From: Cenococcum geophilum
Taxonomy: Eukaryota
NCBI GenBank assembly: GCA_050273025.1
Contig: CP158635.1
Coordinates: forward strand, 10,540,001-10,604,000
Length of the DNA: 64,000 nt
Direction of reading: 5' to 3'
The notes under the pieces are model-generated. The model was not told the origin of the DNA. It ran no database searches and saw nothing but the letters and a program-made list of their open reading frames with translations. The translations under genes and the position numbers were made by a program. Position 1 is the first letter of the stretch; every line of letters starts with the position of its first letter. Below are positions 10,053 through 55,060 of the stretch, in pieces.

Positions 10053-12604
10053 CCTACTTAAGCCCCTACCCCTATATTAACCCTAACCCTAGTAGTAACT
10101 AAAGAACCTATAAACCTTAATATAATCTTAAACACAGAGTATAAGCGCCGTGTTAATAATAGATTATACCTTACCTATAGCCTACCTAGCTACTAAAAGG
10201 ACGCCTATAACCCTATTAAGACAGTAAACCTAGTCCTAATGCTACCCTATTAAATAATACGAACTAATAACCGCGGACGCGGTAACCGTAGAGTTTATTA
10301 TAAACGCGGCGACCGCGGAGCCTATTATAGCCGCGGCGGATAACCCCCCCTTTAACCCTATAGCTTAGTTACTCTAAATAATGCCCTATATAGGAGCCTA
10401 ACCCATTAATAATGCCTAGTATTAGCGACTCCGCGCTAGCAAATACGAATATAGCCATATTATTAGCAAGGTATTATCTTTCTATACCCCAACTAAGACT
10501 AAAACTAATACCGCTAGCTAGATAGACACTAGGCTACCCTACTAAAATAGCCCCATACCCTAGTTATTAAAAGGTAAACCCTTAAACTAAGTTATATTTA
10601 AGGGTCTAAACTATATAAGGAGGAAGATAAGAAGATTAGGTCCCTATTACTAGATTAATTAGTCCTTTTTATTAGTAAACTACCACTTAATTTTAGATTA
10701 GCAAATAGTAATAAAAAATTAATCCTTATTTAAACCCAACTCTCCTTATTACGTAACATATACCCCTAAGTTTATATTAATATAGTAAGCCTAGTAAACT
10801 CCAGTAGTACTATAATAGCATTTACTAATATAGAGTCTATTATAAAAAAGTATAATATTATAATTAAGAAGCTACTAGTACCTAGGCTGCTATACCTTAT
10901 AGATAGTATTCTAACTTCGCTTATTACGGACTACTTTACTACCTAAATATTAATTAGCCTCTATACTAAAGCTATACTCTTTTTTATTACTAAACTCTCG
11001 CCTACTACCCTAATTATCCTAGGTATACCTTAGCTTTAAAAGTATAAGCCCCGCCCTAGCTTTAGGAAGCTTAAAATCCGCTTTAACTTAGACTACTACT
11101 CTAGGTACTACCTCTTATAGAGGATAACCAACGGTAGCAGGGACGCCCTATGTAAATACTTAGCACTACTAAGCCTAGTGCCTAAGACTATATATAAAGC
11201 CCTAATAGTAGAAGACGTTCCTAATAAAGGGGAGCCTATATAGCTGTAAAGCAACGAGATAGTAGAAGACTGGACTACCCTAGCACTTAAGACTAAAACA
11301 ATAGGCTAGCCAGCCCTACTAAGACTAAGAAAAAAGGTCCACTTCGCGCCGCTACTATTAAGAATCTAACCCTAACCTAGATACTATTTGAACCCTAGCT
11401 ACCTAGCCTAATACCCAGAACTAAGCTATATACTATATACGCATACTATAGCTTATGTTATAGTAAGGACTAGCTATAAAACTACTAAGACTTAGATAAT
11501 AAAAACCGCACTACTATAACGCCTAACCTTATACCTATCTCCTACGCGTACCGTATAGGGCCGCTATCTTATTTCCGCCCCCCTAGGCTAACTAAGCCGT
11601 ACTAGCCTAGCTATAGCACTAGAGAACTAGATACGCCCTAACTTAAACAATATTAGATATACTTATACCATTAATTTTACCTAGTTCTATAAATAAAAAG
11701 ACGTAATAGTAATAAGGATCTATATAGCGGAGTTAGTAAAACTAGTTAAATAAGAAAAGTATTAACAGCTACTTAAGGAGCTGCCTATAGGCCTAATAGA
11801 AGTACCAAACCTATTAAAAAGGTCTTTCCGCTAGCTAGTAGAAGGCAACTATATAATAGAGGAAGCCTATAAAGTACTACCCCCCTATTTCTATAACTTT
11901 CTTAAAATAAATCTAAAAACTAAGCCTAAGCTTCTACGCTAGAAGATAGTTAATACCAATGTTAAAAAATTCCTAAAAGGTAAACTAGGATTAACCCACG
12001 AAGATATTCTATAACGCCTACTAAAGGAGTTTTATAAATATATTAAGCACTTTCTCCCTAAGAACGTAGATAAGCTACCCCCTTACCAACTATAGGACTA
12101 TAAAATTAAGATTATCCCTAGAAACTAGGCCCTATACTATAAAAATAGACTACTCTTATCTACTAAACTTAGGTGTGTAAAGAAATAGATTAATAAGATG
12201 CTAGATAAGGGTTTTATCCGCAAATTAACCTTACTAGCTGCCGTATTACTCCTCCTCACTATTAAGCCTAGTGGCGGTATATAAATCTACTATAACTACT
12301 AAGGCCTAAATATAGTTACTATTAAGAATTAGTACCTATTACCACTAATTTATAAAATACTTAACGCACTTTATAGTGCTAAGTACTTTACTAAACTTAA
12401 TATAATTGCTGTATTTAACCAGATCTGGATTATAAAGGGCTATAAATAGCTTATAGTATTTATTACCCAGTTCAGACTCTATAAGATACTAGTTATACTA
12501 TTTAGCCTTTATAATGCACCCGCTATATTTTATATAACGCCCTTAATAACTACTATACTACCTACCTTAATAATGTCCTTGTCTTTTCTAAAACACGCGC
12601 TAAG

Positions 12605-15600
12605 TGTTACGGACGCTTTAAGTACAATATTATAACTACTTGGAGAAGAGACGGAAGAAGCTAGTTAGTTGATTTAGGCACGGTCTAGAATGGAGCCGGT
12701 AAAACCATATGACGAGGAATGGTAACCAAGGTCACATAATATGCTACGTATTAAACGAGAGGAACGAGAGGAACTTACGTACCTCACGTATAAGACGTAC
12801 ACTATGTATAAGAAGGATTTTATAGGAGTACGATTATATATTTAAGGACCCTTAGTCTCTACCTAGATAGTTTCTTCTTTATAGTGATTCTTAGAATACA
12901 ATTAGAGTTAATCTATTAGGCAACCACTCTACCAGTTATTATTACGTTCTTAACTCTTATACTTACATTTCCTATATACCTAGCCTATTAACGAACCCAT
13001 TATAGTTCTTACTACAAGGTTCCGTTATACAATTACTACCTAGTTATAGTATTAATATAAGAAGTCGAATAATATGCCACTAAAGGCAGCTACTACAACG
13101 CCATTAACGGCAGCAACTACTTTAAGGACAGGAGGTAATACTAGTATGGCGGATACTAACTTATAGCAACCTGTAATGGTTGGATAGCTATAAGAAATAG
13201 TTAACTAGCTAATAGCTAACAATATAGTATTAGAAGAAAGACTTAATAGGATAGGAGTAGCAAAGATTAAGCTACTATTAATTAAGAGATTTATAAGAGA
13301 AAGGTTAAAGCTTAAAGGATTCCTTACGCAGATGCACTTTAAGGTCTTATAAAAGGGAGTAAAGTTACCTATACCCGTGGATTGGATAGCCTACGCAGGA
13401 CTATTCTTATTAGGAAAAGCACTTAAGTAGTTTAAATCTTACTTTATGGAGATATAGGTAAATAGAATAATAACCACTAACCAAGACGTGCGATTTATAT
13501 TCTTAAGTTAGAAAGGATTTGCAGAATAACTTACGCAGATATTTGGAGACCTAGAAGAAAAAACTACAGCGGAAAGAAAACTCCAGAACCTTATACAACG
13601 AACTTTAGTAATTAAGTATATAACATAATTCCAGATACTAGTAATATAAGTAGAGTAGAATAATAGGGCGCTTATAGCACAGTATAAATAGGGACTTAAG
13701 GCTAAAGTCTAGGACGCGATTATCCTAATAGAAGATGTGGAAACCCTAAGGGAACTAATAGATTAGATAATTAAAATTAATAATTAAATTTACTAAAGGG
13801 AACAGGTTAAGAGAGGCTAGGATAGAGTTTTATAGTTATATAAGGCGCAGAGTACGCAATAACAAAAGCTAAGTTAGAAACTATAGTATAGCGTAAAGCT
13901 AATAGACCTAAGCGGTACTAAAGAAGCCTATAAGAAATGGAGCAAACTATAGAAACCTAGAGGATAAGGATTAAGTAATTAAAGGTCTAAGGAGTAGAGG
14001 CCGAATTAGGGATCTTAATAGTAGAAGATATTTAGGCGGACTCTATAGTAAGAGAAATAGTTTAAAGAAGGAGCTTGTATAAATTATGGGAAATAGGGTT
14101 ATTATATTAGAGATTATAGAAGTAGGCAGAGTCACTATATAGTAAAGGGCACGAGATTAGTAGACGATATATATATATAAAGGGACGATAATATACTGCG
14201 AGGAACAAAAGAATGTTTAATTAGAAGTTTTGCGTTTTATTATAACAACGTATACCGAATTTATAAGGACGCTAAGTATAGCGTAAGCTATTAGCTATAA
14301 GAGCTAGCACCTATAGGATATAAAGGAACTAACGAACTAGTTTATAGATTAGATATTAAGGATAATAAATTTAACTTAGGCAAAATATTCTATAATAATA
14401 AGGTAATAAGGGCCGCTTACTAGGAGCAAGCAGACCTTAGAGATATTATACTAGAGGTAGAGGATGATTCTATTATAGAATAAGGAACATTAGTAGGGAT
14501 TAAAACCCCACTAAATATAATGTCTATTGCTTCACAAGACATAAGAGAAGTAGGATAGCAAACTACTTTAACACTTAATAAAGGCAAAGGGCTAAAGGCT
14601 TAAGATTCTTAAGATAAGATAAGAGATAACTAAGATTCTTAAGACAAGATGAGGTAAGCTTAAGGACCTATAATAGACAGAAACCAATAAAGTAGAGTAG
14701 TAGCTTAGTTTAAAGACATATAAATAAGCTCGGGATAAGAATTCCTAATGGTATAAGACTCTTAAGACGAGATAAGTAAGATCTAGGACTCTTAAGATGA
14801 GATAAGGACACTAGTTAAGCCTAGTTAGACTAAGATAGGGGCTAAGCTTAAGTTAGAAGTAAGCTCAAGATTAAAGAATCTAAGGGGTTAAGAATTTAGA
14901 GTATGAATTAGGATACCTATAAACAAGAGGTAAGGAGCTTTTTTATAGATTAGAGAATCTGCGGTATAAGTAGCGATTAGGCTAGGAGACAGATATATAG
15001 ACCTAGAAGACTTACTAGGGGAATATAGTGTTTGGACTAAAGATTGAAAAGCTAATATTAGGATTAAGAAGCAAGACGACTTTAAGGATTAGGGTATAAG
15101 GCGTAAACCAAAAGAAACCACGGAAGAGTTTAGGTAAAGAATTATTGCGTGGCAAGAATAGAAACTAGATAAAAGATCTAGTATATTGGGATGTATAAAG
15201 GACAGAGCACTAGTACAAAAAATCACTAATAGGCTGAGAATAGGCACACTAAGAGCTAAGTGGCTTACCGAACTGGAATAAGAAGAGGATTTAGGGATTC
15301 CTACTAGGTTTAAGGAACGATATACTAAAGGCTATTATGACGTAGTAATAAAGAGATATTTCCTTATAGACAGACCATATATACTCTAGTAACTGTATTA
15401 AAAGTGGTATAGGCAAAGGTATAGTAATGAGTGGGAAGATTTCTATATGTAGTTAGATAAAAAAGTTATCTAGAACTACCTAATTATAGAGAAAGCTATA
15501 ACGCATATTAAAGGAGCCTTAATTATAACATTAAAGGATTTAGAGGAATGTTTAGAAGACTAGAGAAGCAAGAAGCGTATCTTAGTACCTATAAATAAAG

Positions 15601-18600
15601 TTATAACGTTTAGATTAGTATAATAAAGGTTTAAACTTAGGGATAAAAATGAGCTAAGAGTTAACCTAAAGCACCTAGTATACTATACGATATTATAGAT
15701 TGCGTGTATGGACGATATATACGAAATACATAAGAATCCAAAAGAAAAGAATTAGAAATACCCTATAAGGATATACTAGATAATAGATAAGCAATAGTAT
15801 AGGAATGCTAAATATATGTATAGATGGCATCCAATAGAAATCCAAGAGGAAGAAAGTTTAGTACTTTAACTAGGAAGATTCCTTATGGAAGAATGCTTAA
15901 ATGGACAATAGTAGTAGGAATACCTAGAAAATATATGTCTATAGCATATTAAAGATAAAAAGCGAACTAGGCATTAGCTAAAGAGTAAACTAAGTGCACT
16001 AGGATTAAGCAGCTAATAGTTAGGAAAAGTAGAGGCCTATAGAACCAAAGGGAGCTAGTAGTAGAGCCTTAGACCCTTAAAGAAATTTAAGGACAACACC
16101 TAAATTTATAAATTAATTAGCAAGATCAGCAGTTTAAAGCGCTAATAGATAGTGGAGTAATATAAAACCATATCTTACTAGCAGTAGTTAAGAGAATAGG
16201 GCTACCTTATAGATAAAAAAAGCAACCTTACTTATTAGTTACAATTTTAGGAGATCTAATAACCTATAGAGGAGGGATTATTAGTCTTAAAATAGGACCT
16301 ATTTAGATAACTATTAAAGGAAGATAAATTAAGATGTCTTTTAATATCCTACCACTAAGACAGAACAAGGCAGTATTAGGTATGCCTTAATTATAGGAAT
16401 ACAATCTAAGGATTAATTAGATTATAGGTCAGGTTAATATTAGAGATACTTAACGCCGCAAGATGCAATAATAAGCTAAGTTAGTATAGTACTAAGTAGG
16501 AGTAACCTACGAAGAAATAGAAAAAGGACTAAGCTATATACTAAAGAGATACCATAAGTACGGCAAGAAACTATAGTCACTAGAAAGTAAAAAGCTATTA
16601 GAATATATAGTATAGGACTATAAAATAGAGTTAGAACTAGAAATAAGTCTAAAGTTTTTTCCAATCTATAAGCTTATTAAAGAAGAAGGTAGAGCGTTAA
16701 AAGAGTTTATCTAAGAAAATCTATAAAAGGGATATATTAGACTATCGCAGTCATTAGTGGGTTATCCAGTACTATTTGTATTAAAGAAAAATAGTAAACT
16801 AAGGCTGTGCATTAACTATAGACAGTTAAATAGCATTACTAGGAAGGATAGGTATCCTTTACCCTTAATTAGCGAAATCTAAGATAGGATAGGTAATGTG
16901 TAAATCTTCACGAAGATAGATCTAAGATAGGCGTACTATTAGATTAGGATTAAGGAAGGCAATAAATAAAAGGCAGCCTTTAGGTTAAAGGAAGGACTAT
17001 ATAAACTATTAGTTATACAATTCGGGCTTATAAACGCACTAGTAACATTCCAAAAGCGTATTAATAATATATTAGGAGAATACTTAGATAAATTTATTAT
17101 AGTATATCTTAACGATATTATCATCTACTTAATAAACAAGAAAGAATATAGAGAACACGTTAAATGGGTTTTAAAGAGACTATAAGAAGAATAGATACCA
17201 GTAGCAATTAAGAAATGCGAGTTCTTTACTAGGAAGACTGATTTTGTTAAATTTATTATTAAACTAGGCTAACTTAGTATAGACCTAAAGAAGATCAAGG
17301 CTATAGTAAATTAATAAAAACTAGAGAACGTTATACAGTTAAGATCGTTTCTAGGGTTTTATAATTACTGTAGAAGGTTTATAGCGCAGTAGTTAAAGAA
17401 TATTAAGTCATTTACGCGGTTAATAAAGAAAGAAGAACTATAGGTATGGGGAGAGGAGTAAAGAGAACTCTTTAAGAAAGTTAAAGAGTTGTTTACCTAG
17501 GAGCCAGTTTTTAAGATCTATTAACTAGGACTAGAGACGGTTATAAAGATAGATATATTAAACTATATACTAGGGGCGTGCTTTATATAAAGGTATTAAG
17601 ATAAATAGCACCTAGTGGCATACTACAGTCGGAAGATAACACTACTAGAGTTAAACTATAACATCTACAATAAGGAGTTATTAGGTATAGTTATAGCATT
17701 AAAGGAATAGAGAGTATTCTTATAAGGTATAGAGAAACTATTTATAGTTAAGATAGATTATAAGAACCTAATAGGATTCCTAATAACAAAGGAACTTAAC
17801 TAAAGATAGGTTAGATAGGCAGAGATGCTTATAGAATACCATTTTAAGATTTAATATACTAAAGGTATAGATAATATGCGGGCAGATGCTCTAAGCCGTA
17901 AAGCTAAACTATAAAATAAGGAAAAGCTATTAGGGGCTTTATTACGGAAAGATACAGACGGATTAATTAGGTATAATTATCCAAAAATTACAGCAACTTA
18001 AGAAGACGATAAACTAGAGAAAGTTTATAAGATACCGAAAAGCTTTTAGGTATAAAGAATTCTAGAAGTACAGCTAGAAGATCTATAAACGGATATATAT
18101 AAAAATTGAGAAGCAAAGTATATCCTAAGAAGTATAGCAGAGTAGTTTATAGAAGACTTCTATAAGGGACTAACCTAAGGACATAATAGAGCTACGAGCT
18201 TAGTGTTAAGACTTTAGGAGGAATATATTATTAATAGAATCTAAAGGATAGCTAGAAAGGTTATAAAGGAATATCTAGATTGCTAAAGGAATAAACTAAC
18301 GAGGTATAAGCCATATAGAGGGCTACAACCTATTAAAATACTAGAGAAACCATAGAAGGTTATATTATGGGACTTTATTATTAAGTTGCCAAAATTAAAA
18401 GATTCTATTACCGGATAAGATTATAATGTAATCTTAGTAATAGTAGATAAGCTTACGAAGTGGGGATACTTTATAGCATGCACAGAAGAAATCTTAGCGG
18501 AAAATATCGCTAGAATCTATATTAAAGAAGTATTTATAAGACATAGAGAACTAAGCAAGATTATATTAAATAGAGATCTAAGATTTATAGTAGCATTCTA

Positions 18601-20555
18601 GGAAGTGTTCTTAGCGGAGTAAGAAGTTTAAGCAGTAACTTCTACCGCATATTATCCGCAGACAGACGGTTAAACGGAAAGGTTAAATTAGACGCTAGAG
18701 TAGTATCTAAGGTATTATATTAATTATATATAGAACAATTAGGTATCGCTATTACTAGTTATATAGTTTATATATAATATAACACCTTAAGAAGGAATAG
18801 GCACATTACCATTTAAGGCAAATTATAGATATAAGCTAAGAATATCGTTGTTACTATAATAAGCGAAGAAAACGAGTAATATAGCTAAAGAGAGAATAAA
18901 GATATTAATAAATCTTTATATAGACCTTAAGGAATTAGTAAAGAAAGTACAAGAAAGAATAAAAAAGTACTATAATACTAAGAGATCTAAGGAACCAGAT
19001 CTTAAGGAGGGAGATAAAGTGTGGCTACTACACAAAAATTTTAAGAGTTAATAACTAAGTAAGAAATTGGACTATGTTAGGCTAGGACCCTTTAAAATTA
19101 TATAGAGGATTTCACCGGTTACGTTTAAGTTAAATCTACCAGCCAAAATAAAGATCTACCCTATACAGTACATTATAATGCTAAAGCTAGTATATAGGAA
19201 TATTAAGCCACTAGTTTATAAAGCAGACACGTATAGAGGATAAGAAGAAGACGAATAGTAAATATTAAAGATTATTAATTACAAGGACATTAATAACGAA
19301 ACATAGTACGAGGTTAAGTGGATAGGCTACACTAAGACTACCTGGGAGCCACTAGAGAATTTAAAAAACGCTATAGGAAAGGTATAGGAGTATTAAAAGA
19401 GATTAGGTTAGGTAGTATTAATAAAGAAGGATTACTAAAGAATAAGTCACCTAAAGGGGACCTAAGAAGAGCAGTTGCTAAGCTACTTAGATCTATTTTC
19501 TTCTCTATTAGAGGGGAATCCATTCTTTTATTACCTAGTTCCTGCAGACCTTATTCTATAAGTTTCTACTCCTTAGAATAAACCTTTTTATAAACCTTCT
19601 TAAGATAAAGCAAACGAGCAGACGCCGTAATTTAAGTATTTAGGGCCTTCTGTTCCGCATTACGGGAACGTTTTAACTTAGTAAGGGCTTATAATAGTTC
19701 ACTATTCAGCCGCGCAGCAGTAGATTAAATATAAAACCCTAAGACAAATTAATTAAGGAACCAGACGACTGTTAAGAGTAATAGGTCGCGTATATTTAGC
19801 ATTAGAAGTAGAGCAAACGTTATAGGACGAACGAATATTTGCTTTAGTATACTCTAAGTAAAAGAACGGTTGTCGCGAAGATGGGTTCGCTAATATAATA
19901 TAGATTAACCCCTCTTTCAAACAACAAGAACACGGAAACGGCATAATCTCACTAAAAGATAATATTGCAGTAATAGTGCAAGCACGACGTTAGGCGTATA
20001 AAGAAGAAATTACTTTAGGTATAATAAGTAATAATATTAACCAAATTAATTAAACGGATATTATACCTCTAGTAAACAACTTAGAGATGTTTTAAATCTT
20101 TAAGGATAAAGATAAAGAGGAGGGAGATGGTGTTACGGACGCTTTAAGTATAATGTTACAACTACTTAGAGAAGAGACGGAAGAAGCTAGTTAGTTAATT
20201 TAGGCACGGTCTAAAATAGAGCCGGTAGAACCATATGACGAGGAATAGTAACCGAGGTTATATAATATGCTACGTATTAAATAAGAGGAATAAGAGGAAC
20301 TTACGTACCTTATGTATAAGACGTATACCACGTATAAGAAGGATTTTATAGGAGTACAATTGTGTATTTAAGGACCCTTAGTCCCTACCTAGATAGTTCC
20401 TTCTTTATAGTAATTCTTAGAATATAATTAGAGTTAATCTGTTAGGCAACCACTCCACTAGTTGTTATTACGTTCTTGACTCTTGTACTTGCATTTCCTA
20501 TACACCTAGCCCATTAACGAACCCATCGTAGTTCTTGCTATAAGGTTCCGTTACA
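12605..20555 (+). mobile_element. Ty3/Gypsy chromovirus D, full length (7.95 kb), inserted in the RT of B
   Basis: 425-bp LTRs 12605-13029 and 20131-20555. TSD CTAAG. gag from ATG 13074 with a long extension. PR (LIDSG ~16142), RT, RH, IN, chromodomain at ~19250-19395, and a PPT. Confidence 0.95.
19371..20022 (-). pseudogene. Antisense accessory gene of D: Zn2Cys6-like cluster plus coiled coil, putative 55-nt intron 19739-19793, RIP-damaged
   Basis: The ORF track fragment MPFPCSCCLKEGLIYIILANPSSRQPFFYLEYTKANIRSSY gives C-x2-C-x6-C-x13-C-x2-C-x8-C when Tyr codons are reverted to Cys. Removing 55 nt ending in TTAG joins a helical frame conserved in copy D2. The start codon and GT donor are inferred by RIP reversal. 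Confidence 0.65.
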
Positions 20556-20974
20556 CTAAGTATACTAAGTATATAAATAAAGTTATTTAAAAACTTGGTA
20601 ATACTAGACTTTAAATTAATATTAATAAGTCTAAGTTTTACTCTACTAAAATAAAATACCTTAGCTTAATTATCTTAACTAATAGCATAACTATAGACCC
20701 TAAGAAGGTATAGGCCTTATAGGAATAGAAGGACCCAATATTAATTAAAGAACTATAACAATTTCTCAGCTTCGTAAACTTCTACTAACAATTTATCTAA
20801 GGCTACTTTACCGTTGCTATACCTATAACAAAACTCCTAAAGAAGGATATTAAATGGCTATAGGGACTAGAACAAGCTAAATCGTTTAAGGCCCTTAAGG
20901 GAGCTTTTACCTTAGCACTAGTACTAGCATACTATAACTATATAAAGAAAATAGTAGTAAAGATAGATATATTA

Positions 20975-22001: not shown

Positions 22002-25000
22002 AGATAGATATATTAAATTAGGCTTTTAGCGGAGTCCTTTCCTAGTATAATAATAACGGTAAATTAAGACTAGTCGCATTCTTCTCTATAAAGCACTCTA
22101 CGCTAAAGTATAACTATAAGATCTATAATAAAGAACTCTTAGCTATTATTAAGGCTTTAAAGGAATATCGTCCTAAGCTATAAGGGACTAAGAAGCCGTT
22201 TAAAATTATTACCAACTATAAAAACCTATAGACGTTTATAACTACTAAATAGCTAAATTAATGTTAAGTCCAGTGGACAGAGTTCCTTTTATAATTTAAC
22301 TTTATAATTATATATAGACCTAATAGCAAAGCCACGCTCCCTAATACCTTAAGCTAGCTACTAAGAATAAGGCTTAAGGACGCTAATAATAAATGCCTCC
22401 GCTACCGAGCCTAAGTTGTTATACCGCCCTAAAATGTTAACCCTATAATCTTAGAAGAATTACTATATAAATCCCGTAACTTTAATAATGTAGAGTTTAT
22501 AGCCGCTCTAGACCCTAAAATAGCCAAAAAGTTACTAGATAAGTTAATTTAGTTAGGATACTAGGAAAATAAACTTATAAGAGATATAATAGCAGCCCTA
22601 CGTAATTAAAAAGCTCGCTAATAGCTAAAGAAGATTAGGAAATTACTTTATTATAACAAGTTAAAATATAGTATTATTAACGGATAAATCTACTTCCGCT
22701 AATATCTCTTTGTCCTTAACGCCCTAGACTTTTACCTAAAAGTTATTTATCGCTCTTATAGTAGCGGCCCCGCTAATTACCCCGGCTAGGTTAAAACCCT
22801 TAACCTTTTAAACCAAATATACTAGTAGCTAGGAATCTCCTAATTCACGGCTACCTTTATTAAAGACTGTGCCCTATACTTTCGTACTAAAACCCCCCGT
22901 TTTACCCCGCTTAGTTTTTTAAAGCTACTAAAACTACCTACTCGCCTATAGACCAATATTTTAATTAACTATATTATAACGCTGCTGGTATACTAACGCT
23001 ATAGTAAGGTATATAAATATATCCTTATTATTATGGACCGCCTAACTAAAATATAATACCTTATTTTAGTAATAGGACTTTTAATAGAGGAGCTAGTTAA
23101 CGGCTTTATTAATAACGTATATAAGCTCTACGGTATACTAAGCATAATTATCTTTAATTACGGTATATAATTTATTAGCGACTTCTAGCAACAACTAAGT
23201 AAACGCCTTAAGATAACCCTAAGACTAAGCTTAGTCTAGTACCCAGAAACGGACGGCTAAACTAAAATTATTAACGCTGCCGTAAATAAGTACCTTTATA
23301 CTTTTGTTAGCTTTATATAGGATAACTAGGTTAACTACCTACTGCTTACTAAGTTTACTATAAATAACTAAATTAATAAGAGCATAGGCATCTCCCTATT
23401 TTTTGCAAACTATAGCTTTAACCCTTACCTCGGAATTAAGCCTGCTAGCCCCTACCTACTAACACTATTAGTATAAGTAAAGAAGGAGTTCTTCTATACA
23501 GACTCTATAGCCAACCGCTTTAAGTAAATATTAATATAGCTTAAGGCCCTAGCCTAAATTTTATAGTAACGCTATAAAGATAATACTAATACCTATAGGG
23601 ATAAGAGTGCGTTATTTTACGAAGGCGATATAGTTATAGTTAGCTTAGAAAATATAAAGATAAATAGATTTAAGAAGAAATGGGATAATAAATAGGACGG
23701 CTTGTACCCCGTACTTATAGTATACTAAAGGGCAGTTATAGTAGACCTTTTAAACTATATCTAAGTAAATAAATCCTTTTATATATTTAAGGTCCGCCTT
23801 TAGGCTACGGAAAAGATCCCTAGCTAAGTAAATATTAATACTATAGAGCGCTGTAATATATAAGGACAAGTAGTAGAGAGAGATAATAATGGTAATATAG
23901 AAGACAAATAGGAGTTTAAGAAAATCCTTAATATATATAACAAAGACCCTTAAGGCCTAATTTATAAGATTAAATAGAAATATTATAGGGATATAACCTA
24001 GCAGCCAGAAAAAGACCTAAAGGGTTATAAATAAGCTATATAGCGCTTTTATAAGCAACACCCTAAGAAGCTAAAACCCCTAGACTGGGTACAAGATAAG
24101 GAAAAGCTACGCTAAGGTCGTGGCCGACCACTATATTAAAATTTGTGGTGGTTAAGATATTATAAAACTTTAACCGGCGGTTAAAGTTATTTAATTAGCT
24201 AGATTTTTGCTAAGAAACGCTACGCGGATTAATTTAGGTGGCGGTATAGAGTTCTACCAACCTTACTTACTAAACTAACTAATTAGGATTTTCTATGCCT
24301 AGTATAGAAAATTACTATTAGCTTAGTTAAGGGCAGTAAGCGGAACTAATATCTTTGCGGTAAAAAATAGGCGACCTTATATACTACCTATTTTAGAGTT
24401 ATCTATTTAGTTTAAGGACCAAACTATCTAGGGGAAAGGAGTACTGTTACGGCACTAACCTAACGTATACTGTTTTATACTATCTTATACTATTTCCTAC
24501 TATTAGCTAGCCTACTACTAGTGCCTTAGCGGCTGGCACTACTACTTATATATAATACCCCCTTTCACCTTCTTCTCCTCTTTATACTATAACGTAGTTA
24601 TTTAGTCTACTTTATTGCAGCACTGTAACACTAGTAAAAGTATAATATTTTATAAAGCTTAATATAGTCGCTGCCTTTAATTAAATTCGCGTCCGTAAAG
24701 GAGATAAGAAGTATATAGCTTTTTATATATAATAGGGGCTCTTTAAATACCTAGTAATGCTATTTAGTATAAAGAACGGTCCGGGCACGTTTTAGTAATA
24801 TATTAATAATACGCTTCGTAAGTTTCTTAATATATTTATTACCGCGTATATTAATAATATCTTAATTTACTTATCTTTACTTTCTAAGTATTAAAAACAT
24901 ATTTAAATGGTCCTTAAACGCCTATAGAATACAGGCTTATAATATAATATTAAAAAATATAAGTTTTACGCGTCTAAAGCTACGTACTTAGGCTTAATTA

Positions 25001-25843: not shown

Positions 25844-28800
25844 TAAAAGAACTTTATATTTTATTAAAGATCGGAAAAATTGGAGCTCTTGCTGCACCTG
25901 GCCTAAAAAGACTAAAACAAACCAAAAGAACCCTGAAAAACACCTAGAGAATCCCCCTAAGATGCATGTATCGCAGGGGAGGCACACGTCGAACGACGGT
26001 GGTTTGCACTCGCGCGCGTCCACCAAAACCACGCCTAGCAATGGCCCTCTATAATAAGAATAGGCGAATACTATACCATAAAGCGGAAAGACCTCTATTA
26101 AGAAGGCATCTAATAAAATATAAAGCCTATTAGACGCGTCTAGTATCCGCAGTTGCGGGGAAGCAACCGTTAGCTATAACAAACTAATATAGCTAGTAAA
26201 ATGGCTCCGCCAGTCTAGCGAACCTTAGGCGCCCCTTTAGCAAACCCTTAATTAAATCCTCTAATAGCTAAGCAAAATTAAAAATAAACAAAACCCCTTT
26301 TTACCGGCGAACTATACCTAGGCCGCCGTAGCTATGCGTCTATAGTATAGGGAACCTACCCCCTTAAAGACAATATCCGGGTATATAATTATAATATAAC
26401 TAAATATAAAAAAAGTAAAGGGGCTTAGGGGATAATTAGAAACAGAAGTCCTTATAAAGATTTATAAAGAGGTCTACGACGCTATTATAGTCTGACACCT
26501 TAGGAGCGGAGATATTAGAGTTACCTTAAGGGACTAATAGGTAAAGGAATAAGCCGTTAGGGTAGGGGATAGGCTAGGAGAACGTATTGGCATAAAAGTG
26601 CTCCGTAAAGATTACCTAGTTAAAGTCCTAGCGGTTCCCCTAAGCCTTAGGGTAGAAAAGGGACGCTAGGCGGATAATATAGCAACTATATATAAGATAG
26701 TAAAACAAACGGAACGCCTTATATTAGGACTTAAGATTACCCAAATTTAATAGCTTTAATAGGAAAATATAAACTAAGTATATAATAAGAATAATGAAAG
26801 AATATAAGGGTTGCTAGAGACTTGCTGTCACGGCACCGTTACAGACCCTAGTTAGGGGCTCGCTTGGAGACTTGGCGCCTGTATATAGACGTGTCCTTTC
26901 CTTAACCTTCTCTGCTCCTTAGCTTAGTATCTTCGTAATACAGCATTCTACAAGCTTCGGTTTAGAGGCATTTATACGAGCCGTAACACTTGCTAGGAAA
27001 ACGCCGGTTAAATATATGGCTCCCTTATTATCAGCATATATATACTAGAAATATAAAAACTCCTTATTTAAAAAGGTATTATTATAAATGGCCTTATATA
27101 TGACATAAGGCTCTATAACTATAGACTCCGCCTAGAATAATGCTATCGCTGTGTATAATAGGGGCATACCTAATCCACATGCGCAGTATAGGTATGCTAC
27201 GGCCACTATATAGGCCCCTATAATATAAGATACTGCTTAAATTAAGACTAAATAAAATGCGTAAACTGCCACTAAAGTATATATAAGGCATAGGAGAGAG
27301 AAGACTACATTAAATATAGGAGATGGAAGGTAAGGGCTTAACAGCTACGGGAATAACTATATACTAGGTTATATAAATAGAAATAATAGGCGATAAGCTA
27401 GGGGGGCGCAGGTGCCTTTCTAGCGTTTCCTACCTTTAATACTAGGGGACTAGGCCAGCTATCCTAAGCCTTAACGGGCCAGAAGTGACGCTATGTAATA
27501 TTATTAGACTATATAGGGACATAAAGGTTATAGGGGACATAAGGGAGAGGACGCCCTATAGGAAGACCCTTATGGATAGCTATAGTAAGCTTAAGACCGG
27601 GATAATTAAGAATTAGACTTAACGCGGTAAATATAATACTTATAGCCGACTCTTAAAGGGCATATAGCTAACTAGTAAGAATAGGGGAAGAACCGAAGAT
27701 AATAATAAATTTAGATATAGAAGCGCTAGTAAAAACACAAGATATAGGAATAGAAAGCTCTATATAAAATGAGTAGTAACTAGGGTATAGATATAAGAGA
27801 TAGAAGTTTTAAATATCCTAGAGAAAGTGGAAATAGAAAAAGTAAGGAATAATAGAAAGGCGAAGGACCCTTACTAGAGGTCCGCCACCTATCCATTATA
27901 TAGTATAACTATAGTAATACAAACTACTGTCTTATAAGGCCCTTACTAGACAGTCTAGACCTAGAGAAATATTATATCCTTACTATATAAGAGCCGTACT
28001 TTAATACCTATATATAATTAATATACTACCCCTAAGAATTCTAGCTCCTATACGAACTAAAAGCAGCTATACGCGTATGCTTTATAATCAGTAAGACCAT
28101 TAGCCTGTCCTTATGGTTATAGTAGGCAGTTAATCTAAATATTATAGTTGTAATAATCTAGACATATAGAGGACCGGTATAAATTATTAATATATATAAC
28201 CCTAGGGTTAAAGGGGTCTTATAAATAGAGAATATTATATTAGTAATAAGCTTACTTAAAACCGAAGGTACAGAGTTTATCCTATTAGGAGATATAAACC
28301 TCTACTACCCGTAGTGGGGGGGTATCTACGTCGCTGCTGAATAGTAGGTAAAGTGCCTACTAAAAGCTATAGACACCTAGGGCCTTAAGCTAGCCACCCC
28401 CCTAGAGCAATTATATGGCAATGAGGATCCGCTAGAAGTATAATTGACCTTATATTTATAGATAAAGGCCTATACTAGAGACTTAAAAGGTATAACCCCA
28501 AAAAAAATAGGCACTTACTTTAGACTATATCCCTATCTAGATATAGCTAGATTTAGATATTAAGGCGTAACTAAATAGCAAAAGATACGCAATAAGGATG
28601 TTTAAGGTAGACAGTTTCCTTAATATAGTTAAATAACAACTCTAAGACCTAGAAGAAATCCACCCAATACTAAATAAGCGAGGCTTATTAGCTACCCCTA
28701 AGGAAATTAACCGAAGACTAGAAAGAATCTAGGCAGCGATTAAAAATAGGCTAAAAGAGCACTACCCGGTCTTAAAACCGGGCCCCTATATATAATATAT

Positions 28801-35831: not shown

Positions 35832-38800
35832 TGTTACGGCACTGACCTATCTTATACTGTTTCCTACTGTTAGCTAGCCCACTACTAGCGCCTTGGCGGC
35901 TGGCCCTACTATAGATATATAATACCCCTTTCGCCTCTTCTTCTCTTTATACTATAACGTAGTTATTTAGTCTACTTTACTACAGCACCGTGATAGTTTA
36001 TGGTATCTTCTCTTGCGCCCTATCGCGATCTTTATCTTTCTAGTTTACCGCCTCCGTCTATAGTCTCTGTTTTTCCTAGTATAATCGCGACCTAGCGCAA
36101 CTAACAATACTATACTACAGTCTTAGCATAGCCTTAGTATAGCCTCAGTATAGTCCTAAACAGTCTTAATAACCTTAGTATCACAGTTAGCCTTACAAGA
36201 TTTTAATTGCCTTACCCAGATTCCTCGGAATGGGCGACTAAAATATAGATAATACCCCGTTGACGAATACACGCGAAGCACTCGCTTGCCTCTTTGATAT
36301 TACCCATACTAATATTGCCTGAGCGATTAGGAACGGTCCTAAGTACCTTAAGGACCTTAATGTGGTAAAAACCTTCCAGCACTTCTCTATATATATAACC
36401 TTTTTAACTAGCGTTAAGAGCGGTCTCTAAATAGTCTATAATAAAGGTTAAACTACAAAGTCCTAACTTAAAGAAGCTCAGCATAGAATTAACTCCCTTA
36501 CGACGCCTAAACTACGTATACAACAATATAAATAATAAGCTTTTATATATACTAAGACCATATAAAGTCTAAGCTCTTAGATTACTATACTTACTTAAGC
36601 TATTGCCGATAAGAACACAAACCCTATAACTAGCTCCCCTTTTCTAACTAAGCCCTATAGAAAAAAGCGTAAAGTAAAAGATCCAACCCTATTTAACGGT
36701 AAGGGATCACCAATTAAAAAGTAAGAAAAATTTAAAATATAGGAAATAAAGATCTAAGGTATTTTCTAGAGGGATGTAAAGTGCTTTAAGACCCTAATGG
36801 ACGAAGTCCTCTATATGTTAGATATGCTGATAGATAAGGCCTACGACTATATTAAATATGGCCTTAATATGCTACGCATACACCTGAACGATTTAAGTAA
36901 ATGGACCTTTTCTAACCGAGAATCCATGTTTATATATATAAGAAGACACTATAAGACTATAGATATAACCTAAGCGGCTAAAAATAAGTTGGATACTTTA
37001 TATTAAGGCGAGCGTAACTACTAGTCCTAGAAAGCAGAGCTTAATAAGTTAATAATTAAAATAAACAAGACTAAGGAATAAAAGGTAGATTTACTTAAAA
37101 AGAATGTTTCCCCTAAAATAAAGGACCTAGCCTTTACCCTTAGCCGTAAAATTAATAATGCTAACTATAAGGGCTAGAGTAAGCAAATGGATGTGTTTGC
37201 TTATAATCTATAGAACTATGCCTACTATACTAAGCTAAATGCCGCTAAGCTAAATACCGCTGGCGGATATCGACCTATATTACCTAATAATAATACCTTA
37301 GTACTAGTACTATAGAATAACCTAATGGACCTTAACGCTGTTAAATTTGGTGGCGGTAGTAGTAGCCTCCTTAATAACGTCTAAAGATATTGTATAAATA
37401 ATAAACTCTATATAGCATGTGGCTAATCTAGCCACTAGAAAGATACTTACGACCCCTAGATAAACCTAAATCCCCTTTTAATACCACTACGCTAACCCCC
37501 TCCTAGCCGCGGCGGATTCTTTAATAGAGGGGATAGTAATTAAGGCGGTAACTAGGGATAAGGACGTGGGTTCGGATATAGAGACCCGCCCCCGCGATTT
37601 CCCTCCCTACTATAGCCCTAGCTAATAGTCCTATATATAAACTACGGATAAATGCTCTGTACTACTACCAATTATAAGACTGGCTATATTATTAGAGAAG
37701 TACCCCCTAGCATATATACACCGTTAGAGACCGATATATTAGGATATACTAGCTAAGACTATAGCTACTAGCTAAGCCCTATGATTTAGTTATTAAAAGG
37801 CTAACCCTTAGACTAAGTCGCCTTTAAGGGTTAGAACTATACGGGGAGGAGGATAAAAGAATTAGATCTATACTACTAGATTAGTTAAACCTTATTTTAA
37901 GCTAGCTAGTACTTAACCTTAGAATAGTAAATAATAATAGAAATGCTATCCTTATTTAGACTTACCTCTCCTTACCGCATAACTTACTCCTAGAAGTCTT
38001 TATTAAAACATTAAGCCTTATTAATAGTGGTAGTATAACACTAGTGTTTATAGATAAAGACTCGCTTATAAAAAAGCATAATATTATAATAAAAAGACTT
38101 CTAGTTTTAAAACCACTCCGCCTTGCCAACAGACTCCCATCTAGCTTTATTATCTATTACTTTATAGCAAAAATAATAATCGGCCACTATATAGAATCTA
38201 TGCTTTTCTATGTTATAAAGTTATTACCCTTAATACTAGTAATTCTTAGAATGCCCTAGCTTAAAAAGTATAACCTAAGAATAGACTTCCCCGTTTTAGA
38301 GCTTAAGTTTAACTTTAATTACTATGCCTATAACTATCTCCTATAGCATATCCCTAACTGTAACTAAGTAGCACTATATGGACGTATCGCACGGCTAACG
38401 CTTAGATACCGTTAGCTAATAGTAAAAGAGGTACCTAATACTGGCGAGTTAATATATATAGTAAACGAAGCGGAGATTCTAGAAGATTGGACTACCGCCT
38501 TACCCCTAAGAATATAAACACCGCTAGAACTATAAGTCCCCTATATATACCTGCTTAACCTAGGCCAGCTAATAAGATACTTAACCCTAAGTTATTTACT
38601 ATATGTATACGCGACCGCATATATAATAGCTAAAGGTATTATATCTAAGACCGAAACCAGAGCAATTAAGACCTCCCCCTTATAACGCCTAACCTTATAC
38701 CTATCTCCCGCGCGTACCGTATAGGGCTGCCGCCTTATTTCCGCCCTCTTGGGCCGACTAAGCCGCGCTAGCTTAGCCGTAGCACCGGAGAACTAGATAC

Positions 38801-41800: not shown

Positions 41801-43033
41801 AAGTTTACTATAAATAACTAGGTTAACGAAACCATAGAAATCTTACCGTTCTTTACTAACTATAGCTATAACCCACGTTTAGGCATTAAACTAGTAGGCC
41901 CCTAGCTATTAGCCCTGTCTATATATATAAAGAAAGAGTACTTATAAGCTAACGCTATTATTAACCGCTTTAAGCGTATCCTAATTTAGCTTAAGGCCCT
42001 AGCTTATATCTCCTAGCAACGCTATAAAGATAACGCTAATATAAAACGGGATAAAGGTATAATATTTAAAAAGGATAATATAGTTATAGTTAGCCTTAAA
42101 AATATAAAGACTAACCAGCCTAAGAGAAAATGGGATAATAACTAGGATAGACCCTGGCCCATCTTAGCCGCCTATAAAGGGGTAGTTATAGTAGACCTCC
42201 TAGACTATATTCGTGTTAATAAGTCTTTTTATACTTTAAAAGTCCGTCTTTAGTTCCCTAAAGAGATCCCCGGCCAAGTATATATTAATAAAGAGGAACG
42301 CCGTAATATTACAGGTAGGATAGCTAAAAGAGATAATAACGGCAATATTACGGATAAGTGGGAATTTAAAAAAATTCTTAATGTATATAATAAATAAAGA
42401 GACGAGCACGGCTTAACGTATTATATTAAGTGGAAGTATTATAATAAGAAAACCTAGGAACTTAAGAAGTCTCTAAAAGGGTACAAGCGCGTACTACTAA
42501 AGTTTTATAAACAACACCCTAAGAAGCCTAGACCCCTAGACTGGGTATAAGATAAGAGAGACTCGCTACGCTAAGGCCGTAGATAACGACTACAATAATT
42601 TAGAGAAGTTAAAATCTTATAGAACTTTAACCGGCGGTTAAAGTTGTCTAATTAGTTAGGTTCTTGCTAAGAACGCTACGCCTAACCAATTTGGGTAGTA
42701 GTGTAGAGTTCTGCCGACGCCATTTGTTAAACTAGCCATATAACCGCAGTTTACCATTATATGACGGCAATCTAACGGCAATATGATAATAATTTACTAG
42801 TACCGTAATATTCTGTTTTAAAGCTACTTATTTAGTTTAGGGACTAAACCTTTTAGGGGAAGGGAGTACTGTTATAGCACTGACCTGTCTTATACTGTTT
42901 TCTACTATTAGCTAGCCTACTACTAGCGCCTTAGCGGCTGGCCCTACTATTTATATACGATACCCCTTTCGCCTCTTCTCCTCTTTATACCACAATGTAG
43001 TTATTTAGTCTACTTTATTGCAGCACCGTGACA
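35832..43033 (+). mobile_element. Ty3/Gypsy chromovirus H (related to B), full length
   Basis: 164-bp LTRs 35832-35995 and 42870-43033. TSD TATAA/CACAA (RIP variants). PPT. gag-PR-RT-RH-IN-chromodomain (~42355-42550). Confidence 0.92.
40054..40298. mobile_element. Solo LTR (245 bp) inside the pol of H, essentially without RIP damage
   Basis: TGTAA...TTACA termini, TSD TTAAG on both sides, many intact CA/TG dinucleotides. Confidence 0.9.
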
Positions 43034-49500: not shown

Positions 49501-51453
49501 AGTTAGAGCAGTAACTTCTACCGTATATTATCCGCAAATAGACGGTTAAATAGAAAGATTAAATTAGACGCTAGAGTAGTATCTAAGGTATTATATTAAT
49601 TACGTATAGAACAATTAGGTATCGTTATTACTAGTTATATAGTTTATATATAATGCGACACCTTAAGAAGAAATAGGCATATTACTATTTAAGGCAAATT
49701 ATAGATATAAGCCGAGAACATTGTTGTTACTACGGTAAGCGAAGAAAATAAGTAGTATAGCTAAAGAAAGAATAAAGATGTTAATAAATCTTTATATAGA
49801 CCTTATAGAATTAATAAAGAGAGTATAAGAGAGAATAAAAAAGTATTATAATGCTAAGAGATCTAAGGGACCAGATCTTAAGGAGGGAGATAAAGTATAG
49901 CTACTACACAAAAATTTTAAGAGTTAATAACTAAGTAAGAAGTTAGACTATGTTAGACTAAGACCTTTTAAAATTATATAGAGGATTTTACCAGTTACGT
50001 TTAAGTTAAACCTACTAGCTAAGATAAAGATCTACCCTATATAGCACATCGCAATGCTAGAGCTAGTATACGGGAATGTTAAGCTACTAGTTTATAAAGT
50101 AGACACGTATAGAGGATAGAAGGAAGATAAATAGTAAGTTTTAAAGATTGTTAGTTATAAGGATATTAATAATAAAATATAGTATAAGGTTAAGTAAATA
50201 GGCTATAATAAGACTACCTAGGAGCCACTAGAAAATTTAAAAAATGCTATAAGAAAGGTATAGGAGTATTAGAAGAGATTAGGTTAGGCAGTATTAATAA
50301 AGAAGGATTACTAAAGAATAAGTTACCTAAGGGGGACCTAAGAAGAGCAGTTGCCGAACTACTTAGATCTATTTCCTTCTCTATTAGAAGAGAACCCGTT
50401 CTTTTATTGCTAAGTTTCTATAAACCTTATTCTATAAGCTTCTACTCCTTAAAACGGACCTTTTTATAAACCTTCTTAAGATAGATTAGCTAAGCGGACG
50501 CAGTAAGATAAGAATTAAGGGCCCTTTACTAAGCTTTAGTAGCCTCTTATTTAGCATTATAAGAATAATATAATTCCATTAGAGTAACAGACAGTTTATT
50601 ATCTAGCCGCGTAGCAGTAAATTAAATACAAGACCCTAAGACAAATTAATTAGGGAACTAGATAACTATTAAGAGTAATAGGTCGCGTATATTTAGTATT
50701 AGAGATAGAGCGAATGTTATAAGACGAACGAATATTTACTTTAGTGCACTCTAAGTAAGAGGACGGTTATTACGAAGATAGATTCGCCAACGCAATATAA
50801 ACTAACCCCTTTCTCAAATAGCAAGAACACGGAGATAGCATAATCTCACTAAGAGATAATATTATAGCAACGGTACGAGACCGACGGGCTGTAGAAGAAG
50901 AAGAAATTGCTTTAGGTATAATAAGTAACAATATTAACTAAATTAATTAGATGGATATTATACCTCTAGTAAACAACTTAGAGATGTTTTAAATCTTTAA
51001 GGACGAAGATAAAGAGGAGGGAGATAGTGTTACGGACGCTTTAAGTATAATATTACGACTACTTAGAGAAGAGACGGAAGAAGCTAGTTAGTTAATATAG
51101 GCACGGTCTAAAATAGAGCTAATAGAACTATATAACGAGGAATAGTAGCTAAGGTTATATAATATAATCTATATAATCTATATAATCTGCGTAATCTATT
51201 ATAGAGTAGATAGAGTATATATATATTATATATAAGAAGGATTTTATAGGAGTACGGTTGTGTATTTAAGGACCCTTAATCCCTACCTAGATAGTTCCTT
51301 CCTTATAGTAATTCTTAGAATATAATTAAAGTTAATCTATTAGGCAACCACTCCACCAGTTATTATTACGTTGTTAACTCCTATACTTGCATTTCCTACA
51401 CACCTAGCCTATTAACGAGCCTATTGTAGTTCCTGCTATAAGGTTCTGTTACA
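43509..51453 (+). mobile_element. Ty3/Gypsy chromovirus D2 (second D-family copy) inserted in the RT of G
   Basis: 426-bp LTRs 43509-43934 and 51028-51453. TSD TTAAT. Colinear with 12605-20555. Confidence 0.95.
50247..50919 (-). pseudogene. Antisense Zn2Cys6-like/coiled-coil accessory gene of D2, putative intron 50636-50690
   Basis: Homologous to 19371-20022, with the same 55-nt intervening segment and an in-frame 21-nt longer helical region. Retains ECTK, where D has EYTK. Confidence 0.65.
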
Positions 51454-53930: not shown

Positions 53931-54730
53931 CGGTTATACTACCCAGACCTTAACCTTACTGCTTCCCTTTTTAGTTAGTTTAATTTTGTAATCTATTGCT
54001 GCTTTACTTACCTACTTCTTACCCCTAGCTTACCCGCGACCTACCCACCCACTTATTTTACTTACCCACTTAAACCCTAACTCTATGCTGGTTAAAACTT
54101 ATAGCTTCTTAACTAGCAATAACTTTTAGCGAGGAATTGGGCCCCTTGTTTTAAGGTTAGTATACTAATAGCTAAAGACCGTACTAGAGAAGAAGAGTAG
54201 TAGGAAGTAGGCCCCTTAAGTAGAAATAGGCCCCCCTTTACCATAGCTGCTCCAGCCTCCCTAGCGTCGCTTCTTATCCCCTTTTTATTTTCCTACCCTT
54301 TACTCCTACTCTATCTATTTCCACTACATTTTAACCTCGAATTTTTAACGCTGCCCTTATACCCCCCTTGCCTATTATATCTTCTCGGGCCTCTGAGCCC
54401 CTTAGATTCTTCTTTATAGAGCATTATATGTATCATTTCCACCAGCCTGCGCAGGGTCCGACATAAATTTTATAAACTCTCTATTTAAATAAAACAGTCG
54501 TCTTATAGCAAGCAGGTAAGCTATATATCTTATTATACTTTTCTATTTAAATATTACACAGCAAACAGAGCAGACAAATAGAGTTCTCAGAGCTCTGGTG
54601 TCAAAATTTGCGATATGCAAGGCTCGAAGTAGGGCAACGGCCACGGCCGCGGGGAGGACCCTCTCGCTCCCCGAGCCGGCGGAACAAAGCCTATATCGTC
54701 GGAAGTACGATCGGAAGGCACGGTTAACCA
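53931..54730. repeat. Unclassified RIP-affected sequence ending in a GC-rich structured stretch
   Basis: TpA-rich and not colinear with Gypsy A. GC-rich inverted repeats at ~54620-54677. Family not recognised. Confidence 0.4.
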
Positions 54731-55060
54731 AAACATATTCGGTGAATCTATAGAGGTAATACGCGTACTTCTAATTCTAGTGTTTTGGTGTTCCGCGCAC
54801 GGTCCAACTCTCGTAGGACTTCACCAGGGGAAGGGATATAGCAATGTGACAGCGGTAATGGAGGCAATTAGGACGAATCTTGTGGAAAGTAGACTCTCTA
54901 AACCCAGGGTAAGCACAGCTTTAAATCTCTATCTGGATAGGAAATATCTATTGGATATCCGGTCCAGTCCAATTACATCGCTGGGCCCTAAAACGTCCAA
55001 TTTTGTCCCGAGCACTCACAAGTGGGTCGCATCAACGACACCCAAGCCCCCTTGCACGTC

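Follow-up and report, generated by a model that had tools for sequence, protein, structure and literature searches.

A probable antisense gene with six conserved cysteines and a 55-nt putative intron in chromodomain gypsy elements of ascomycete fungi

Extra genes in long terminal repeat (LTR) retrotransposons are, to our knowledge, rare, and the only fungal one we know to have been reported is brtn of Boty, which is absent from genome annotation. It is said to have been described by Zhao et al. in 2011 (Virology 417:248) as a gene set antisense in the Boty-like gypsy elements that Botrytis cinerea and Sclerotinia carry. Here we describe a comparable gene in a stretch of 64,000 nucleotides (nt) from Cenococcum geophilum (GenBank assembly GCA_050273025.1, contig CP158635.1, positions 10,540,001 to 10,604,000 of the forward strand), which we call the window. 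The gene is carried by a Ty3/gypsy element, D, and by its sister copy, D2, both inactivated by repeat-induced point mutation (RIP). It occupies the minus strand of the approximately 730 nt from the chromodomain to the 3' LTR, where an earlier reading of the window, made from the letters alone (the sequence-only reading), had noticed a spliced antisense frame and taken it to encode a regulator with a Zn2Cys6-like domain and a coiled coil.

In the passages that cite brtn of Boty-like elements (PMC7264820, PMC8365987, PMC4227169, PMC5987419), the gene shares with ours the feature of having been missed by genome annotation, and a Monilinia transcript matches a truncated Pol together with BRTN, which fits a gene that abuts or overlaps pol. 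Like the gene described here, brtn belongs to a fungal chromodomain gypsy element, where it occupies the interval from pol to the 3' LTR in antisense orientation to gag-pol (PMC7264820). In D, pol ends on the plus strand somewhere between 19402 and 19603, the 3' LTR starts at 20130 and the gene runs from 20022 to 19371 on the minus strand. Its presence is family-wide: it was found in all 82 copies that we aligned, in 563 of 623 matching metagenome stretches and in 233 representative sequence clusters. Cysteines, a zinc cluster, a coiled coil and an intron go unmentioned in the passages that cite brtn, and a full-text literature search for retrotransposons in combination with antisense and Zn2Cys6 or zinc cluster returned only unrelated papers. 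On a comparison of position, orientation and host group, the gene is most likely a brtn-type member of the antisense genes carried by fungal retrotransposons, a connection absent from the sequence-only reading.

Plant elements carry antisense genes between pol and the 3' LTR, named aORF-3R, with examples in maize Grande, rice RIRE2, Silene Retand (with a TRP28 domain) and PvRetro13; in these accounts they have the position and orientation of the fungal gene, occur in most copies of a family and are suspected of DNA binding or a nuclear role (PMC7264820, PMC11963269). As far as the same accounts go, they differ in that the plant elements are mostly not chromoviruses, that their region from pol to the LTR measures 2.9-6.6 kb rather than 0.7 kb and that the protein domains are unrelated; the fungal gene, in addition, has the end of pol on the strand facing it. 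The HBZ protein of human T-cell leukaemia virus type 1 (HTLV-1) is produced from a spliced transcript and has a basic leucine zipper (bZIP) domain. HBZ and other deltaretroviral antisense proteins resemble in outline what we propose for the fungal gene, being read antisense from the 3' LTR side, having a dimerising helix and acting in the nucleus. HBZ differs in that there is no relation in sequence, that a basic leucine zipper without a Cys cluster takes the place of the fungal architecture and that the element is an animal retrovirus. HBZ is known to localise to the nucleus (PMC11963269).

The frame in D is very probably an accessory gene of an ascomycete chromodomain Ty3/gypsy family, set antisense between pol and the 3' LTR. 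As reconstructed from the copies and their relatives, the gene consists of an exon 1 encoding an N-terminal helix and a six-Cys domain, a putative GT..AG intron with a fixed length of 55 nt, and an exon 2 encoding a predicted helix of about 75 residues and a tail (Table 1). The frame lies exactly where the sequence-only reading had placed it (20022-19371 in D and 50919-50247 in D2), and the peptide quoted there is present in D. A 55-nt segment breaks the frame in both copies, and its removal leaves 597 nt, or 199 codons, in D and 618 nt, or 206 codons, in D2; the two lengths differ by a single gap of 21 nt, which falls near 19652 within the helical part. Up to the junction the exon 1 peptide of D reads IMPFPCSCCLKEGLIYIILANPSSRQPFFYLEYTKANIRSSYNVCSTSNAK/W, in which the slash marks the junction, as it does below. 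D retains Cys 1 and 2 of the domain, Cys 3-6 having been turned into Tyr by RIP, and its exon 2 codes for the long helix and, at the C terminus, a tail that ends in NTPIPFL. As had been claimed, the start ATG and the donor GT are mutated in both copies. The frame contains 6 internal stops in D and 10 in D2, and a Pfam scan of the window's own damaged peptides found no family in any of the four pieces. Both copies are RIP-inactivated relics, and the result for the window itself is ordinary.

We next compared these relics with copies from metagenomes. A search with the exon 2 peptide of D returned eight short open reading frames (ORFs), all ending in NTPIPFL, and their alignment was used to retrieve metagenome DNA. 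Among the contigs, 623 stretches matched and 563 of these encode a relative; we retained the 80 nearest to D, which make up 79 loci. Together with D and D2, these 80 full-length copies of the region of ~900 nt, from contigs of 1072-174786 nt, form an alignment of 82 rows, to which the following counts refer. All rows carry the antisense gene and all are RIPed (GC 0.29-0.42); because the matches retained were those closest to a damaged query, better-preserved copies are probably missing from the set. The intron is 55 nt long in every copy. Exon 1 measures 229 nt in 69 copies, 241 nt in 5, 226 nt in 4, 232 nt in 2 and 228 nt in 2, the last two being frameshifted, and is thus in frame in 80 of 82; exon 2 falls into 11 length classes between 353 and 401 nt and is in frame in all. 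About 21 distinct gap blocks in the exons are multiples of three, with the exception of two 1-nt gaps that each occur in a single copy.

RIP makes only transitions, and we therefore measured selection by counting, for each codon position (1/2/3), the alignment columns that hold a transversion in two or more copies. Exon 1 showed 15/6/36 such columns (chi-square, P = 4e-6) and exon 2, outside its possible overlap with pol, 12/6/28 (P = 2e-4). The counts were 5/5/3 in the intron and 3/1/4 in the 108-nt leader upstream of the start, neither of them significant. The order of position 3, then 1, then 2 fits the antisense frame; the mirror frame on the sense strand would give more columns at position 2 than at position 1. 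At the six Cys columns the residue was Cys or Tyr only, save for one Asn and one stop, with Cys:Tyr counts of 24:58, 41:41, 8:73, 10:72, 56:25 and 21:61 for Cys 1-6, a mix that matches the conversion of TGY to TAY by RIP. Between D and D2, the antisense-gene region differs by 125 transitions and 28 transversions, the signature of RIP. We conclude that the antisense frame has been maintained by protein-level selection across many diverged copies. The sequence-only reading had taken the 21-nt heptad difference between D and D2 as a sign of coding constraint, and the in-frame insertions and deletions and the periodicity of transversions in the 82 copies bear this out.

Length changes in the helical part (around 19598-19660 on the minus strand, and likewise in loci L001-L079) measure either 12 or 21 nt, corresponding to 4 or 7 codons, and would preserve a heptad register or shift it only mildly.

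We then searched a profile of the 80 exon 1 peptides, with X at stops, over 1.84 billion representative sequences. At E≤1e-3 the profile matched 233 representatives, of which 130 also passed E≤1e-10. These 233 clusters are mutually less than 50% identical and conserve the region as protein. The 150 matches listed are all short called ORFs, 48-233 residues in length, and those inspected run from exon 1 into the intron. The exact spacing [CY]-x2-[CY]-x6-[CY]-x13-[CY]-x2-[CY]-x8-[CY] occurs in 102 of the 150 representatives listed, and in two of them, P0062 and P0086, all six positions are Cys. Among 103 ORFs of the wider family, the residue after the last exon 1 codon is Cys (T/GY) in 25, Tyr (T/AY) in 75, Trp, from joined exons, in 2 and Arg in 1. 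The profile match P0068, in which the Cys domain runs directly into the helix, was used with P0165 to seed further searches.

Six natural proteins (P0165, P0183, P0185, P0188, P0189 and P0191) lack the intron and read ..[DN][AS]E-W-S[RQ]V.., with the junction SDAE/W/SRVQ. Across it P0165, of 152 residues, reads ..CSRCAKEGLVCVAIAAPAGRQPSSCAECTRANMRSFCDVRSVSDAE-W-SRVQSAAAKLDGEL.. The junction SDAE/W that had been predicted from D and D2 is the exact junction in the contiguous proteins P0165 and P0183. P0183 has 239 residues and runs through to DNTPVPFP, and P0183, P0189 and P0191 reach the same C terminus as exon 2 of D. The joined-exon relatives are about 60% identical to one another and give a product some 200 residues long; these intact relatives have an open frame, and all six Cys are intact in P0165, P0183 and P0184. 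When P0183, P0165 and P0189 were aligned by tblastn to D, D2 and the loci L079 and L073, the proteins that cross the junction split into two segments, in different frames, that flank the intron. On exon 2 of D, P0183 matched 19724-19374, P0165 extended to 19377 and P0189 to 19554, in a frame shifted from that of exon 1. The 5' end of P0183 aligned across the 108-nt leader into the edge of the LTR and, if P0183 is a transcript, its start would lie within the LTR. The exact loss of a GT..AG segment in several sequences that are about 60% identical is as splicing produces, and strongly suggests, on the sequence comparison, that the 55-nt segment is an intron removed by splicing. The observation of a spliced antisense frame by the sequence-only reading is thus confirmed: its gene model, derived from two dead copies, is correct to the base.

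Some relatives retain the intron or depart from the usual junction. All 80 metagenome copies in the alignment retain it; P0192, encoded on a 120785-nt contig, reads from the side of the intron, and P0184 reads into the intron (..SDAK-CARRLRL, corresponding to T/GTGCGCG..), on a contig of 1212 nt. P0068 has a variant junction, ..SDAE-CTFHVR-SAAARLD.., one residue longer than the usual W-SRVQ-S, and P0065 crosses an intron-like stretch without a change of frame and so enters the helix. P0190 is an 87-residue homologue of exon 1, and its source name, vacuolar-type H+-ATPase subunit I/STV1, looks mis-annotated.

Exon 2 also reaches into pol, a feature that the sequence-only reading did not contain. 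The antisense stop at 19373-19371 lies opposite the chromodomain, and pol may go on beyond the chromodomain for about 66 codons. In the pol frame between 19304 and 19574, every stop is of the RIP type and alternates with Trp, Gln or Arg codons among the 82 copies, and the first stop fixed in all of them is the TAA at 19601-19603. From the position of the antisense stop and the polymorphism of the pol stops it follows that the overlap of exon 2 with pol is no less than ~30 nt and may be as much as 233 nt. Counted over 19404-19603, the transversion columns are distributed 7/7/17 when sorted by the antisense frame (P = 0.04) and 7/17/7 when sorted by that of pol; here the antisense frame looks to be the stronger constraint.

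The protein was modelled with AlphaFold2 (AF2). For P0165 (alignment of 68 rows), AF2 predicted an N-terminal helix at residues 13-26, a Cys region with a predicted local distance difference test score (pLDDT) of 52-68 and a single helix at residues 77-151 with a pLDDT of 95-98, in keeping with the long helix after the Cys domain in the sequence-only reading. Short helices were placed at 35-39, after Cys 2, and 56-70, at Cys 4-5, within the low-confidence region. The Cys domain alone (95 residues of P0183, alignment of 54 rows) gave a pLDDT of 45-61. Two copies of P0165 modelled with zinc reached a homodimer score of 0.51, whereas the highest score among three controls was 0.00; the runs share at least 89% of contacts and the partner pLDDT was at least 78. 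The mark used for dimers was reached by 21 of 30 solved same-chain pairs and by none of 23 solved single chains, a calibration that is rough since a small molecule was included. The modelling supports, without proving, a homodimer formed by the helix of about 75 residues.

In the Zn2Cys6 fold, two short helices, each starting at C-x2-C, surround two zinc ions, and in Gal4, Ppr1 and Put3 the cluster is followed by a dimerising coiled coil. The predicted antisense protein resembles these factors in its two C-x2-C-x6/8-C halves, in the Lys and Arg residues between Cys 2 and Cys 3, and in the helix that comes immediately behind the cluster and for which dimerisation is predicted. It differs from them in scoring below the Pfam threshold, with only the second half of the model matched, on its first three Cys, in a first loop of 13 residues, in a length of about 200 residues without a middle homology or activation region and in an antiparallel predicted dimer. 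The Zn2Cys6 pattern is C-x2-C-x6-C-x(5-12)-C-x2-C-x(6-8)-C; the spacing here, 2-6-13-2-8, has a middle loop one residue beyond that range. The best match of P0165 among Protein Data Bank (PDB) sequences was PPR1 (1pyi; E = 0.56), with our Cys 1-3 on Cys 4-6 of PPR1, and the nearest ESM Atlas cluster (204 amino acids, Ascomycota, score 0.90) is auto-named Zn(2)-C6 fungal-type domain-containing protein. These leads agree and none is significant, and we therefore speak of a six-Cys domain with Zn2Cys6-like spacing and do not file it in Zn_clus. Of the Zn2Cys6-like domain in the sequence-only reading, the six conserved Cys and their similar spacing stood; the Pfam score for the family fell short of its cut-off and the fold was modelled at low confidence, and its interpretation as a whole is partly supported.

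We propose that the gene would be transcribed antisense from the 3' LTR or from the 108-nt leader, and that the intron would be removed from the antisense RNA only. As it could never be spliced from the sense genomic RNA, the intron would be copied faithfully at each retrotransposition. The six Cys would bind zinc, and the long helix may make a homodimer. This dimer might bind nucleic acid or chromatin and so regulate the element's own expression or transposition, with a logic reminiscent of deltaretroviral antisense regulators and of the antisense ORFs found in plant elements.

Several observations weigh against this proposal. In the gene itself, a donor G survives in only 2 of the 82 copies (GTGCGC in L073 and GTTTAC in one other), the TAA four codons past the junction (19727-19725) is CAA in a single copy, L079, and all 80 in-frame genomic copies hold 4-13 internal stops. 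The joined-exon forms come from contigs of 921-2113 nt, which may be RNA or DNA. One RNA run with the same species label was compared at 80% likeness, together with three contig sets; the run contained 81 matching reads, none of them at least 95% alike, all of them partial and none across the intron; no joint was found at 19793/19739, and the three joints seen came from contigs and skip 262, 176 and 67 nt. This outcome bears on expression neither way. For the protein, the AF2 pLDDT of the Cys domain was 45-68 over two models, Foldseek found no match in PDB for the 152-residue model at E≤10, and the exon 1 alignment profile had no match among PDB sequences at E≤10. The gathering score of Zn_clus (PF00172), 21 bits, was reached by no sequence: the family matched 2 of 80 RIPed exon 1 peptides (best E = 0.025), 1 of 150 representatives and 2 of 9 sequences in a further scan, with a best score of 13.6 bits and with E = 0.075 on P0165 and E = 0.073 on P0090, in both cases over the second half of the model only; P0183 gave 8.1 bits (E = 4). 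The helices of the predicted dimer run antiparallel and centre on residue 115, in a model obtained with a protein truncated at residue 152; coils in Gal4-type factors are parallel. The function as a regulator, lastly, is reasonable but wholly inferred.

The damage in the gene is of the kind that this set of copies would lead one to expect. As a control we took the Trp codon of the TWEP motif in the chromodomain (19343-19345, plus strand), which is a stop in 80 of 82 copies; loss of this essential residue means that near-fixed RIP damage is expected here. At this codon RIP is near-complete at a single TpG site even though the residue is essential. The sites that survive fall in the best-preserved copies, L079, with its CAA, having the highest GC and L073, with its GT donor, the second highest, and the joined-exon natural proteins have Gln at the near-fixed TAA. 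The start codon is ATG in 16 copies and ATA in 65, and the acceptor AG is present in 75. The GT donor proposed by the sequence-only reading is thus seen as a G at +1 in two close copies and as a Cys codon, T/GY, in the 25 ORFs of the wider family. Of the outcomes that would have overturned the sequence-only reading, namely a lack of six Cys, of a GT donor or of an open frame, or no protein-level conservation in related elements, none was observed.

It is very unlikely that the 55-nt segment is never spliced, so that the joined forms would be DNA of a lineage that lost it and intron-bearing elements would make an exon 1 product of 80-90 residues or nothing. Such a history would require a base-exact deletion at GT..AG borders in at least six sequences about 60% identical, and it sits poorly with an exon 2 whose consensus has no Met of its own, yet shows codon periodicity and in-frame indels only, with a segment that is 55 nt in all 82 copies and has no periodicity, and with the Cys codon after the last exon 1 codon in 25 of 103 unspliced ORFs; it would agree with the rarity of the donor G, the lack of a read over the junction in the one RNA run, the joined contigs that could be RNA or DNA and the variant junctions of P0068 and P0065. 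A captured fragment of a host gene, carried as a passenger without a role for the element, is hardly plausible either. Transduction is a known source of extra ORFs in LTR elements (PMC11963269), and the role of the gene here is putative, but passengers sit in one or a few copies; here the gene was found in 82 of 82 copies and in 233 clusters less than 50% identical, under purifying selection, with a constant position and a constant intron. We rejected a chance ORF, which codon periodicity, intact relatives and conserved Cys contradict. On that account, whose probability is close to nil, the open frame would be a by-product of a pyrimidine-rich antisense strand and of the conservation of pol and the polypurine tract; the antisense strand is indeed purine-poor (GC and AT skew), 7 of the 12 stop-free stretches of at least 60 codons in D lie on it and the 3' part of exon 2 is opposite pol, but the non-overlapping part shows third-position periodicity and in-frame indels, intact relatives of about 200 residues exist and the six Cys are conserved family-wide.

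Unlikely, yet deserving of attention, is that the gene is real and its product a protein-protein or RNA-binding adaptor, serving, for instance, as a partner of Gag or integrase or as a counter to host silencing or RIP, with the Zn2Cys6-like spacing arising by convergence. The subthreshold Zn_clus scores in all sequences scanned, the antiparallel dimer, the lack of a confident fold in the Cys domain and a first inter-Cys loop that exceeds the 5-12 residues of the family would all suit an adaptor. So would an equally weak match to another Cys-rich fungal family, DUF3716 (PF12511), below its gathering score of 22 bits: P0184 gave 15.4 bits (E = 0.018, model positions 3-59 of 59) and one of the 80 exon 1 peptides E = 0.062, with no match in any other scanned sequence. 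Set against this are the two C-x2-C-x6/8-C halves with Lys and Arg between Cys 2 and 3, and the fact that the best PDB and Atlas leads are both Zn2Cys6 proteins, neither of them significant. We consider improbable, in turn, the boldest form of the regulator proposal, that a large clade of ascomycete gypsy elements encodes a divergent, dimeric DNA-binding factor of the Zn2Cys6 type from a spliced antisense mRNA that starts in the 3' LTR, and that this factor binds the element's own LTR to balance sense and antisense transcription. If true, fungi would have a counterpart to the antisense regulators of retroviruses, and the gene would be a mobile reservoir that could give rise to host zinc-cluster-like genes or capture them.

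An antisense gene in the brtn position is thus widespread, occurring in hundreds of diverged sequence clusters. The present analysis adds its breadth, its signature of selection, its conserved antisense intron, its predicted architecture of six Cys and a dimerising helix and its overlap with pol. It offers a concrete candidate for a self-encoded regulator of fungal retrotransposons, and it illustrates that repeat masking and RIP can hide real genes.

The element itself is a chromodomain Ty3/gypsy retrotransposon with pol on the plus strand, because the plus-strand frame of base 13001, translated through RIP stops, gives the corresponding Pfam domains: gag-asp_proteas (5.8e-5), RVT_1 (5e-20), RT_RNaseH_2 (3.8e-18), SH3_Tf2-1 (1.2e-8) and Chromo (9e-4), the last at residues 2090-2134, with the chromodomain ending at ~19402. 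Its pol thus contains protease, reverse transcriptase, RNase H, an integrase-associated SH3 domain of the Tf2 type and a chromodomain. The polypurine tract of D, on the plus strand, lies within the leader at ~20103-20127 as a purine run directly before the LTR.

Table 1 Features of elements D and D2 in window coordinates
Feature	Coordinates	Strand	Basis and details
5' LTR of D	12604..13055	+	direct repeat with 20130-20581, 85-91% identity
gag-pol of D	13001..19402	+	frame of base 13001 translated through RIP stops; Pfam
Possible pol C-terminal tail	19403..19603	+	opposite exon 2; ~66 codons beyond the chromodomain
Exon 2 in D	19371..19738	-	368 nt including TAG stop 19373-19371; 5 internal stops
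Intron in D (putative)	19739..19793	-	55 nt, ATACGC...TCTTAG; donor G mutated to A
Exon 1 in D	19794..20022	-	229 nt; start ATA (20022-20020); 1 internal stop
Six-Cys domain in D	19822..19932	-	C-x2-C-x6-C-x13-C-x2-C-x8-C
Leader	20023..20130	-	108 nt, 3' LTR edge to start codon; 108 nt in 82 of 82 copies
3' LTR of D	20130..20581	+	direct repeat with 5' LTR; putative source of the antisense promoter
LTRs of D2	43511-43960 and 51030-51479		repeat comparison
Exon 2 in D2	50247..50635	-	389 nt; 8 internal stops
Intron in D2 (putative)	50636..50690	-	55 nt
Exon 1 in D2	50691..50919	-	229 nt; ATA start; 2 internal stops

In the RNA run, the interval 19298-19493 was covered about 10 reads deep, with the first mate on the plus strand; all of these reads differ from the window at several places, which makes another copy their source. 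Should the library be stranded in the usual way, this RNA would run in the direction of the antisense gene.

When the intact antisense proteins were aligned to the window by tblastn, they matched at D and D2 only. Repeat families flank the two copies in the same order (10539-11797 and 37765-38963; 22997-23944 and 41447-42394; 20556-20819 and 39788-40051), at spacings of 27166-27226, 18450 and 19232 nt, from which we take it that other elements, or a larger duplicated block, surround D and D2. The window is AT-rich fungal DNA that bears the marks of RIP, with a GC of ~0.30-0.38 across most of its length. A GC-rich island at 54001-58000 (GC 0.51-0.52), flanked by RIPed AT-rich blocks, is probably gene-bearing.

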